This document shows positions 25,660 to 27,664 of a DNA stretch of 64,000 nucleotides, in pieces (positions within the stretch are counted from its first letter, which is position 1; the number at the start of each line of letters is the position of its first letter). A program made the translations under genes and the position numbers. The stretch covers positions 10,982 through 74,981 of IMG/VR virus record IMGVR_UViG_3300047550_002723; one strand, written 5' to 3'. The DNA comes from a virus. Under the pieces are notes generated by a model, which did no database searches, was not told the origin of the DNA, and saw nothing but the letters and a program-made list of their open reading frames with translations.

Positions 25660-27664
25660 ATGACTGCTTCTATTGCACAACGCAATTCTACTAACCCATG
25701 GGAATCTTTTTGCCAGTGGGTTACTTCTACCGACAACCGACTTTATGTGGGGTGGTTCGGTGTTCTGATGATTCCTTGTCTGCTTGCTGCTACGACTTGC
25801 TTCATCATCGCATTCATCGGTGCTCCCCCAGTGGACATTGATGGTATTCGTGAACCCGTTGCTGGTTCACTCATGTATGGAAACAACATCATCTCTGGTG
25901 CTGTTGTTCCAAGTTCAAATGCTATCGGTCTGCATTTATACAATATTTGGGATGCAGCAAGTCTTGATGAATGGCTCTACAATGGTGGACCTTATCAACT
26001 TGTAGTATTTCACTTCCTCATCGGCGTCTTCTGCTACATGGGTCGTGAATGGGAACTTTCTTACCGTCTTGGTATGCGTCCCTGGATTTGCGTAGCATAC
26101 TCTGCACCTGTTGCTGCTGCTACTGCTGTATTCCTTGTGTATCCTTTCGGTCAAGGAAGTTTTAGTGACGGAATGCCTTTGGGTATTAGCGGAACTTTTA
26201 ACTACATAAACTAAACCAATGTGTAGTATAAATCGGGTGAACTGCTGGAAACCTAAGTCCTTTATGGATACGGCAATCAGCATCCAAGACACAGACGATA
26301 CTTCTGTGTAAGGTTCAGAGACTAGTCGGTTTTCCAAGCGTGGAATGTAATACGACACTAGCGCCCGACAACCTTTTATGATATAATGTTTATCCAACCC
26401 TTCCATATATAACTCATAAGTTGTATAAATAGTATAAGGTAAATGGGGATAAACAAATGACTGATATTGACGCCGCTTGGTTAGCGGGACTTTTAGAAGG
26501 TGAAGGTTATTTTCAAATAACTAAACCAAAACCTAATCATCCAACACAAGTTCTTATTAGACTATCAATGACTGATAAGGATGTTGTAGAAAAGGCATCA
26601 AAACTTCTAAATGTTCCTATTAACTGTAAAGCAAAAACTACTGAAAAAAAGACTATCTATTCTATTAGTTTAAGTAGAAAAGATGATGTAGAAAAAGTTC
26701 TTTTACAAATACTTCCTCATATGGGTAGTAGAAGAAGTGAAAGAATAACTGAATGCCTTGAAACTATTACAGAAAGACGAAAAGTTCTTTCTGAAACAAG
26801 ACGAGAGCAACAAGTTAAAGCGGCAAAAATCAGATGGGAAAAAGTAAAAGGTTGATGATATAGTCCAATCCCTATGGAAACATAGGTTCCTCGTTCTGCT
26901 TAATAGGTTGGTTTTCCAAGCAGAACACAACATCCTTATGCACCCATTTCATATGATGGGCGTAGCGGGTGTCTTCGGTGGTTCACTGTTCAGTGCAATG
27001 CACGGTTCTCTGGTTACTTCCTCGCTGGTTCGTGAAACCACTGAGAACGAGTCTCAGAACTATGGTTACAAGTTTGGTCAAGAAGAAGAGACTTATAACA
27101 TCGTTGCTGCTCACGGTTATTTCGGACGCCTTATTTTCCAATACGCTTCCTTTAATAACTCCCGTTCGCTGCACTTCTTTCTCGCTGCTTGGCCCGTTGT
27201 CGGTATCTGGTTCACCGCTCTTGGTGTTTCTACGATGGCTTTTAACCTCAATCGTCGGGGTCCCGTCCTAGCAATTTGACGGTAAACTTTGGGTGAATTG
27301 CTGGAAGCCCTCCTAAATGGGTAATCAGCAGCCAAGCCACAGACGCTTCTGTGGAAGGTTCAGAGACTAGGTGGTTTCCCAAGCGTGGGATGTAATACAC
27401 CAATAGCGCCCAACATCCCTCTGGGATGAAGATATAGTCCTCTCCTTAAAGATGGTAAATTTAAGGAAACAGAGTAACGGTTTTAATTTCAATCAATCAC
27501 TACTTGATAGTCAAGGTCATGTGATTAACACTTGGGCTGATGTTCTTAACCGAGCAAATCTTGGTTTTGAAGTGATGCATGAAAGAAATGCACATAACTA
27601 TCCTTTGGATCTTGCAGCCGTTGAAGCAACACCAGTTGCTCTTACTGCTCCCACAATCGGTTGA
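25660..27664 (+). CDS. psbA: Photosystem II D1 protein; exons 25660-26207, 26907-27248, 27475-27664 (359 aa spliced)
   Basis: Exons total 1080 nt; junctions restore [12 protein letters not shown] and AFNL-NGFNFNQ; Y161, D170, E189, H332, E333, D342 present; Glu130. Confidence 0.97.
26208..26906 (+). mobile_element. Group I intron 1 of psbA (699 nt, in codon Met183) carrying a LAGLIDADG ORF
   Basis: P1 ACTACAT/GTGTAGT with U.G at the splice site, P10 AAACCAA/TTGGTTT, core TGCTGGAAA..AATCAGCA..TCAGAGACTA..GATATAGTCC, terminal G. Confidence 0.93.
26457..26855 (+). CDS. Single-motif LAGLIDADG homing endonuclease (intron-encoded)
   Basis: [15 protein letters not shown] motif, [16 protein letters not shown]; lies in the P8 loop (AACCTTTT/AAAAGGTT). 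Confidence 0.85.
27249..27474 (+). mobile_element. Group I intron 2 of psbA (226 nt, in codon Leu297), ORF-less
   Basis: P1 ACCT^C/GGGGT, core TGCTGGAAG..AATCAGCAG..TCAGAGACTA..AAGATATAGTCC, terminal G. Confidence 0.92.

Follow-up and report, generated by a model that had tools for sequence, protein, structure and literature searches.

We analyzed a 64,000-nt stretch of viral DNA (positions 10,982 to 74,981 of the IMG/VR virus record IMGVR_UViG_3300047550_002723; hereafter the window), in which the psbA gene is interrupted by a group I intron that carries an open reading frame (ORF) for a LAGLIDADG protein. The source record comprises 74,981 bases with an estimated completeness of 32%, and among isolates it comes closest to S-SRM01, a Synechococcus myovirus from freshwater (~77% nucleotide identity across syntenic genes). 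In the window, psbA occupies positions 25660-27664 and consists of three exons (25660-26207, 26907-27248, and 27475-27664) which, once joined, encode an intact 359-aa D1 protein in an uninterrupted reading frame (Table 1). The first intron (intron 1) splits codon Met183 after nt 548 of the coding sequence (CDS). Exon 1 ends in ...AACTACAT, its final base being U, the first base of exon 2 (G at 26907) completes the ATG of Met183, and the last base of the intron is G26906. A preliminary description of this locus, made from the letters alone, had placed an intron with clean P1 and P10 pairings at 26208-26906, and these boundaries and pairings proved exact. P1 consists of 7 bp between exon positions 26201-26207 and intron positions 26221-26227, with U26207·G26221 at the 5' splice site, and P10 consists of 8 bp between exon 2 positions 26907-26914 and positions 26213-26220, directly adjoining P1.

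Table 1. Coordinates of features at and around the psbA locus of the window
Feature	Position	Strand	Basis
PhotoRC-II RNA motif, upstream of psbA	25526-25621	+	Rfam RF01717, 86.4 bits, E 5.7e-15
psbA exon 1, 548 nt; last two bases are the first two of codon Met183	25660-26207	+	Pfam Photo_RC, E 1.7e-49; spliced translation
Group I intron 1, 699 nt, IA-type with P7.1/P7.2	26208-26906	+	Rfam, E 3.7e-9; helices by complementarity; covariation
Internal guide sequence (P10 strand 26213-26220, P1 strand 26221-26227)	26213-26227	+	Direct complementarity, 8 + 7 bp
Ribozyme core 5' block (P3, P4, P5, P6/P6a, P7 5' strand, P7.1, P7.2, P3')	26233-26368	+	Rfam, covariation, complementarity
P8 5' strand	26370-26377	+	8 bp with 26846-26853
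TATAAATA, T4-type late-promoter-like motif for the intron ORF	26424-26431	+	Comparative conservation; function inferred
Shine-Dalgarno-like GGGGA, 7 nt before the ATG (GAGGA in homologues)	26445-26449	+	Direct reading
132-aa single-motif LAGLIDADG homing endonuclease gene (putative) in L8	26457-26855	+	Pfam, AF2, Foldseek, dN/dS
P8 3' strand (26846-26853), J8/7, P7 3' strand (26861-26865)	26846-26865	+	Rfam, complementarity
P9 hairpin, GAAA loop	26871-26886	+	Rfam, complementarity
9-bp helix, intron 3' tail (26893-26901) with exon 2 (26918-26926)	26893-26926	+	Complementarity
psbA exon 2	26907-27248	+	Pfam Photo_RC; spliced translation
Group I intron 2, 226 nt, ORF-less, sister ribozyme, after CDS nt 890	27249-27474	+	Rfam, 79.7 bits
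psbA exon 3, including the stop codon	27475-27664	+	Spliced translation
Free-standing Endonuclease VII-type gene, F-CphI-like, downstream of psbA	27752-28273	+	Pfam Endonuclease_7, E 3.6e-22

Anatomy of the intron 1 ribozyme

The Rfam model Intron_gpI (RF00028) aligned over its whole length to positions 26165-26887 (43.9 bits, E 3.7e-9) and located a large insert in the P8 loop. The core strands could be assigned to P7 (5' strand, 26320-26324), P7.1 (26325-26328 with 26353-26356), and P7.2 (26332-26336 with 26341-26345). In an alignment of 14 related introns (A2), which comprises intron 1 and 13 others taken from intron 2, S-SRM01, S-CBWM1, several IMG/VR contigs, and a tRNA gene of the window, 19 of the 30 predicted pairs showed compensatory changes on both sides, and P7.2 displayed a double compensatory swap in contig L003 and in S-SRM01. 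The homologous intron of contig L007 reached 53 bits with the same Rfam model.

Beyond the core, a 9-bp helix between the intron 3' tail and exon 2 encloses the 3' splice site together with the P10 partner, and one of its pairs changes from U-A to C-G in L007 and in ORF-less forms. The 12-mer GGTTTTCCAAGC also occurs twice, once in the P7.1/P7.2 region (26327-26338) and once in exon 2 (26910-26921), a repetition that may be due to chance (roughly 1 in 60).

Contigs of 655-671 nt holding the intron and its ORF at ~97% identity were present in three metatranscriptome runs (X17 with two shorter contigs). One metatranscriptome contig ends exactly at 26906, the last intron base, which is a weak hint of either an excised intron or an ORF transcript. 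In an RNA run, the match of a 123-nt contig begins exactly at 26907, preceded by 23 unmatched letters. Among the contigs of the three metatranscriptome runs and one DNA run, none joined 26207 to 26907; such contigs cannot show the absence of ligated exons, and the psbA genes of the host and of other phages swamp the exon depth.

The ORF in loop L8 encodes a LAGLIDADG protein

The preliminary description had located a 132-aa ORF in P8, and the ORF does lie between the two P8 strands, with its last three codons and its stop overlapping the P8 3' strand. Its product carries the motif LAGLLEGEG at residues 9-17, with the acidic residue E16 at motif position 8, and exceeded the Pfam cut-offs of both LAGLIDADG_3 (PF14528, 32.2 versus 22.5 bits) and LAGLIDADG_1 (PF00961, 23.9 versus 23.1 bits). 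A profile of the ORF family matched I-AniI, I-HjeMI, I-MsoI, and I-CvuI in the Protein Data Bank (PDB), with a best E value of 1.2e-13. The AlphaFold2 (AF2) model of the protein, with a predicted local distance difference test (pLDDT) of 91.5, follows the alpha-beta-beta-alpha-beta-beta-alpha order and continues into a long C-terminal helix. Its top Foldseek matches were the homodimeric single-motif enzymes I-CvuI, I-CreI, and I-MsoI (probability 1.00; I-TnaI lower; template modelling scores of 0.61-0.67). Within the family, E16 was kept in at least 90% of 38 relatives, and D40, D42, R92, and R93 were invariant or nearly so.

Prediction of the protein as a homodimer yielded a score of 0.75, versus 0.00 for the best of three controls, with 100% contact agreement between runs and a pLDDT of at least 87, and placed the LAGLIDADG helix (residues 3-16) at the interface. 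Among proteins of solved structure, the mark set for this score is passed by 20 of 30 that are one-chain pairs and by 1 of 23 that are single chains. Since similar dimers have already been solved, the pass may reflect memory and indicates likeness rather than proof. The ratio of nonsynonymous to synonymous divergence (dN/dS) ranged from 0.15 to 0.38 among seven homologues; judging from these sequences, the ORF is under purifying selection. The assignment of the ORF product to the LAGLIDADG proteins, already made in the preliminary description, is thus supported by sequence, fold, and predicted dimer, and analogy with characterized enzymes suggests that it is a nuclease with a target of its own.

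I-CreI, I-CvuI, and I-MsoI, which are encoded in group I introns of green-algal chloroplast 23S rRNA genes, resemble the phage protein in their single LAGLIDADG motif, their fold order, their dimerization through the motif helix (predicted here), and the position of their genes in an intron loop. However, they share only 13-17% identity with it and measure ~160 aa versus 132 aa. The phage ORF further differs from these enzymes in that it scores higher with LAGLIDADG_3 than with LAGLIDADG_1, resides in a protein-coding gene of a phage, is preceded by a T4-type promoter motif, and faces a presumed target that is not visibly palindromic.

Candidate expression signals upstream of the ORF

The octamer TATAAATA, which ends 25 nt before the ATG of the ORF, matches the late-promoter consensus established for phage T4. 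It was retained in all seven homologous introns, while the surrounding loop is merely 68-97% identical. An exact copy also preceded 17 of 19 endonuclease genes in related psbA loci, including LAGLIDADG genes at two sites as well as HNH, EndoVII, and GIY-YIG genes. Across the window, the motif was not enriched (6 observed versus 6.2 expected), and the argument for a promoter is therefore one of comparative conservation. Scans of the window for sigma-70 promoters and terminators gave no excess over shuffled sequence. The preliminary description had credited the ORF with its own late promoter: the motif is present and is conserved in homologues, but its frequency in the window is that expected by chance. 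Use of TATAAATA as a late promoter in this phage would follow the T4 pattern.

Distribution and states of the intron at site 548

No DNA match to the ORF was found in 50,697 GenBank phage records, and protein matches there were all below 60% identity, including two weak tblastn matches to records named 'Cyanophage'. The pairing of a LAGLIDADG ORF with a psbA intron was likewise found in no isolate genome searched, nor in the papers searched. Among uncultured viruses, the picture was different: ~45 metagenomic protein clusters were 63-98% identical to the ORF product, in seven IMG/VR contigs this intron, together with its ORF, occupied the identical site, and the public runs that hold the element, from 14 studies, were labelled freshwater, lake, lagoon, or aquatic. 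The element is thus common in uncultured freshwater cyanophages.

We scanned IMG/VR with a 26-nt query across the site-specific guide sequence and obtained 26 contigs with the site-548 intron. Six of them carried the LAGLIDADG gene in L8, approximately 10 carried an unrelated ORF of 219-224 aa in L5, and approximately 9 had no ORF. The L5 ORF gave only weak zinc-ribbon matches in Pfam, and its C-terminus looks HNH-like by eye. The nearest empty forms (L055 and L070) are compact introns of ~230 nt with the ribozyme type of the window, ~90% identical to it over the first 167 nt. Three ORF-less introns retained remnants of the L5 ORF: those of IMG/VR contigs L051, L062, and L073, 271-309 nt long, keep its first and last tens of bases and look like deletion stages of a homing cycle. 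The intron is absent from S-SRM01 and from many other psbA contigs, and the site is therefore polymorphic for its presence.

Other cyanophage psbA introns are known. That of S-PM2 is ORF-less and paired with the free-standing nuclease F-CphI in collaborative homing (Zeng et al. 2009, cited in PMC6083498). It likewise belongs to a cyanomyovirus and to the same ribozyme family (73% identity over ~96 nt), and an F-CphI-like gene also lies downstream in the window. In contrast to the intron of the window, which has a nuclease of another family inside it and lies after nt 548, the S-PM2 intron is inserted after ~nt 1005, in agreement with its initial portrayal as ORF-less and close to the 3' end. 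The psbA introns of S-CBWM1 and S-SRM01 carry endonuclease ORFs (PMC8557907; Xu et al. 2018 as cited there). In both phages psbA is split by group I introns, one with a homing-endonuclease ORF, but the sites are nt 276 and nt 654, and the ORFs are HNH in L5 (S-SRM01) or without a Pfam family (S-CBWM1), neither being LAGLIDADG. In GenBank, the psbA of S-SRM01 (L001 1486-3888, NC_070963) is entered as two partial genes and a homing endonuclease; read from the sequence, the gene comprises four exons separated by group I introns after nt 276, nt 750, and ~nt 1005, three in all, and full D1 is restored.

The usual nucleases of phage group I introns are, per a review, GIY-YIG, HNH, PD-(D/E)xK, and EDxHD enzymes (PMC3984707). 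The td intron of phage T4 differs from intron 1 in its nuclease, I-TevI being a GIY-YIG enzyme encoded in L6. Rare phage precedents for intron-borne LAGLIDADG genes come from one DNA polymerase intron of a Nitunavirus and from crAss-like phages (PMC11878797, PMC7886860). The statement that phage intron nucleases are normally not LAGLIDADG enzymes therefore holds as a rule with exceptions. The proposed novelty of the intron/endonuclease combination must also be narrowed: it is new to the GenBank phage records and the papers searched, but common in uncultured phage contigs, and psbA introns with endonuclease ORFs have been published.

Origin and mobility of the element

The S-SRM01 intron after nt 276 has core segments 90-100% identical to those of intron 1, yet holds an HNH ORF in L5. 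From such comparisons of sequences, the resident element appears to be the ribozyme, with nuclease genes as interchangeable cargo. Because the site-548 ribozyme exists both without an ORF and with another ORF in L5, a nuclease gene is likely to have invaded a resident ribozyme. The nearest relatives of the ORF outside its own family are at most 47% identical and comprise free-standing LAGLIDADG genes of actinophages and of Myxococcus phage Mx1, as well as genes in genomes of Chloroflexota, Actinomycetota, and Acidobacteriota. The actinobacteriophage and Mx1 proteins are the closest named relatives (40-45% identity) and are similarly small with a single motif, but they lie outside introns, and their hosts and targets are unrelated. 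Neither cyanobacterial genomes nor chloroplast-named proteins were found among the relatives, the latter among 3,220 profile hits, a weak negative as most entries are unnamed. Invasion of a resident ribozyme by a phage LAGLIDADG gene, one of two origins envisaged at the outset, is consequently favoured by the empty and L5-ORF forms and by the bacterial and phage relatives.

Several comparisons bear on mobility. The ribozyme core was 98.6% identical between contigs whose flanking exons are 80-82% identical, and within the clade of the window the synonymous divergence (dS) of the ORF was 0.09-0.23, versus 0.66 to saturated for exon 1. Similarity rankings of ORF and exon disagreed, L006 having the nearest ORF and the farthest exon 1. 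With regard to possible co-conversion of the adjoining exons, the first 60 nt of exon 2 were 90% identical, versus 80% further out, and between the window and L004 dS was 0.10 in exon 2 and 0.85 in exon 1; part of either difference could be due to constraint on codons that take part in P10 and the tail helix.

Interpretation and alternative explanations

The feature is real, and represents a known kind of element in a new combination of gene, host, and nuclease family. With a probability of roughly 85%, it is a mobile group I intron within psbA of an uncultured T4-like freshwater cyanophage related to S-SRM01, carrying in L8 a nuclease cassette that arose by invasion of a resident ribozyme. 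The course from self-splicing and late-promoter use to cleavage of a target and homing is inferred as follows. The IA-type ribozyme (P1-P10) would excise itself from the psbA transcript, and the rejoined exons would encode intact D1. The L8 cassette would consist of the late-type promoter TATAAATA, a ribosome-binding site, and the 132-aa single-motif LAGLIDADG gene. Its product, expected to work as a homodimer by analogy with I-CreI, would in mixed infections cleave psbA alleles that lack the intron, close to the Met183 junction, whereupon recombinational repair would copy the intron, the ORF, and some flanking exon from the intron-bearing genome into the cut allele. The cassette itself would go back to the insertion into L8 of a LAGLIDADG gene of bacterial or phage type, at a time when the ribozyme was already established at psbA site 548.

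A number of observations weigh against this interpretation. The Rfam score of intron 1 (43.9 bits) falls below the gathering score of 50, owing to the 470-nt insert. Self-splicing is deduced from the structure, and contigs from RNA libraries could include DNA. With 132 aa the protein is smaller than is usual in its family, I-CreI being 163 aa long, and residues 91-131 are modelled as a single long helix. Dyad symmetry at the exon junction did not exceed background, the best value within 4 nt on either side of the insertion site (5/11) equalling the gene median, which fits poorly with a homodimeric enzyme; natural sites of homodimeric LAGLIDADG enzymes can nevertheless be rather asymmetric. The 98.6% identity of the ribozyme core is partly due to structural constraint. 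Finally, dS of the ORF between its two clades (~0.55-0.68) is similar to exon dS; the element is therefore not uniformly young, and some of its spread is not recent.

The ORF product could also, or mainly, serve as a maturase that aids folding of the ribozyme, its endonuclease activity being weak or lost. I-AniI, bI3, and I-TnaI help their ribozymes fold in this manner, and among solved structures the two that match best by sequence are the bifunctional I-AniI and the bI3 maturase. A long basic helix, modelled at the C-terminal residues 91-131, could bind RNA, the big L8 insert might hinder folding, and purifying selection is compatible with any retained function. However, conservation across the family extends to the catalytic acidic residue and to the further invariant polar residues, and ORF-less forms of the ribozyme occupy intact psbA genes, meaning that the protein is not needed for splicing. 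Low ORF dS across divergent psbA backgrounds further points to continuing mobility. We consider a maturase role, whether main or additional, unlikely.

Common import of intron and ORF from a green-algal chloroplast psbA intron would be the other origin raised by the preliminary description. The chloroplast psbA gene of Oedogonium contains ten group I introns, one of them after nt 548 (PMC2442088). This intron, Oc.psbA.6 of Oedogonium cardiacum, shares the insertion site of intron 1, assuming equal D1 numbering, and L8 LAGLIDADG ORFs are common in chloroplast introns (PMC2442088, Table 4). Compared by description only, Oc.psbA.6 differs in being of the IA1 type with a 202-codon HNH ORF in L5, similar to the L5-ORF form of phages, and not a LAGLIDADG ORF in L8 (PMC2442088). 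Three phage sites in fact coincide to the nucleotide with Oedogonium sites, again with equal numbering assumed: at site 179, phage and chloroplast introns both carry a single-motif LAGLIDADG ORF at the 3' end (L9), and at site 276 both carry an HNH ORF in L5, so that at these two the match extends to nuclease family and loop; at site 548, it is the phages' L5-ORF form that stands beside the alga's HNH ORF in L5. Against import of the intron with its ORF stand the 90-100% identity of the ribozyme core segments to other phage psbA introns, the existence of empty phage forms, the 3,220 profile hits without a chloroplast-named protein, and the higher score of the ORF with LAGLIDADG_3 than with LAGLIDADG_1. 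Of the suggested chloroplast origin, only the shared site 548 thus stands, the ORF relatives being bacterial or phage, and we judge such an import to be very improbable.

With ~10 phage sites and ~15-20 published chloroplast sites over ~1,060 nt, chance alone would produce ~0.2 coincidences. The three shared sites, two of them with agreement also in nuclease family and loop, prompt a broader reading that can tentatively be considered, though we would not call it probable: the psbA introns of freshwater cyanophages and green-algal chloroplasts might form one exchanging pool, with phages as its reservoir or vector. Were this true, a LAGLIDADG gene in L8 would be an innovation of the phage side on a shared ribozyme lineage.

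That psbA is not spliced at all and was simply broken by an inserted free-standing endonuclease gene, as the partial genes annotated in the related S-SRM01 and the sub-threshold Rfam score might suggest, has a negligible probability, given boundaries that restore the frame precisely, perfect P1 and P10 pairings, a terminal G, covarying core helices, and exons strongly constrained at the protein level in at least seven contigs.

As a mobile intron with an L8 nuclease cassette, the element has several implications. The nucleases listed for phage introns gain a family with this LAGLIDADG gene, which lies in a photosynthesis gene of a cyanophage. More useful than the single case is the natural population, in which one site occurs with an empty ribozyme, an L8 LAGLIDADG gene, an L5 nuclease, or decaying remnants, while a second LAGLIDADG family adds a free-standing homologue beside an intron-less psbA. 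Bonocora and Shub reportedly outlined a pathway by which nuclease genes colonize ribozymes, and these stages offer a compact system for testing such colonization and the homing cycle in wild viruses. With insertion sites shared exactly between phage and chloroplast psbA introns, a link between phages and chloroplasts becomes testable, and engineers of meganucleases may take an interest in a small LAGLIDADG enzyme that is predicted to fold well and would have a defined natural target.

Other introns and nuclease genes in psbA loci and in the window

Approximately ten distinct psbA intron sites were found across all loci. L007 (675-4651; IMGVR_UViG_3300032271_000996) has a single psbA with six group I introns after aa 60, 108, 183, 218, 250, and 337, all called by Rfam, three of which carry ORFs (LAGLIDADG, HNH, and LAGLIDADG), and with a GIY-YIG gene downstream. 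A second family of single-motif LAGLIDADG proteins resides in an intron after psbA nt 179 in ~29 IMG/VR contigs (L014-L042). The branch joining the site-548 and site-179 families received a value of 80 in the Shimodaira-Hasegawa-like approximate likelihood ratio test (SH-aLRT), which does not establish a sister relationship. In L039 (2501-2893), a homologue is free-standing; it follows closely after a psbA without interruptions and likewise has TATAAATA. In addition, a 141-aa relative from an ENA contig (P0042), 75% identical over the first 104 residues, has a precomputed Endonuclease_7 Pfam match and may be a LAGLIDADG/EndoVII chimera or an assembly artefact.

Within the psbA gene of the window, alleles with and without intron 2 coexist, as a DNA-run contig joins 27248 to 27475 exactly. 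The product of the downstream Endonuclease VII-type gene is 41% identical to F-CphI of S-PM2 (E 1.7e-27), and the gene is preceded by TATAAATA at 27723-27730. Despite this F-CphI-like neighbour, the site of intron 2 (nt 890) differs from the S-PM2/F-CphI site (~nt 1005), where the psbA gene of the window has no intron.

A third group I intron was detected elsewhere in the window at ~6377-6571 (Rfam, 64.6 bits), in the anticodon loop of a tRNA-like gene (region 6350-7148) that was not called by ARAGORN and would read tRNA-Arg(UCU) once spliced. It is followed by an HNH-like free-standing ORF (6678-7148) with ATAAATA upstream, and the two may constitute another pair of an intron and a free-standing nuclease.

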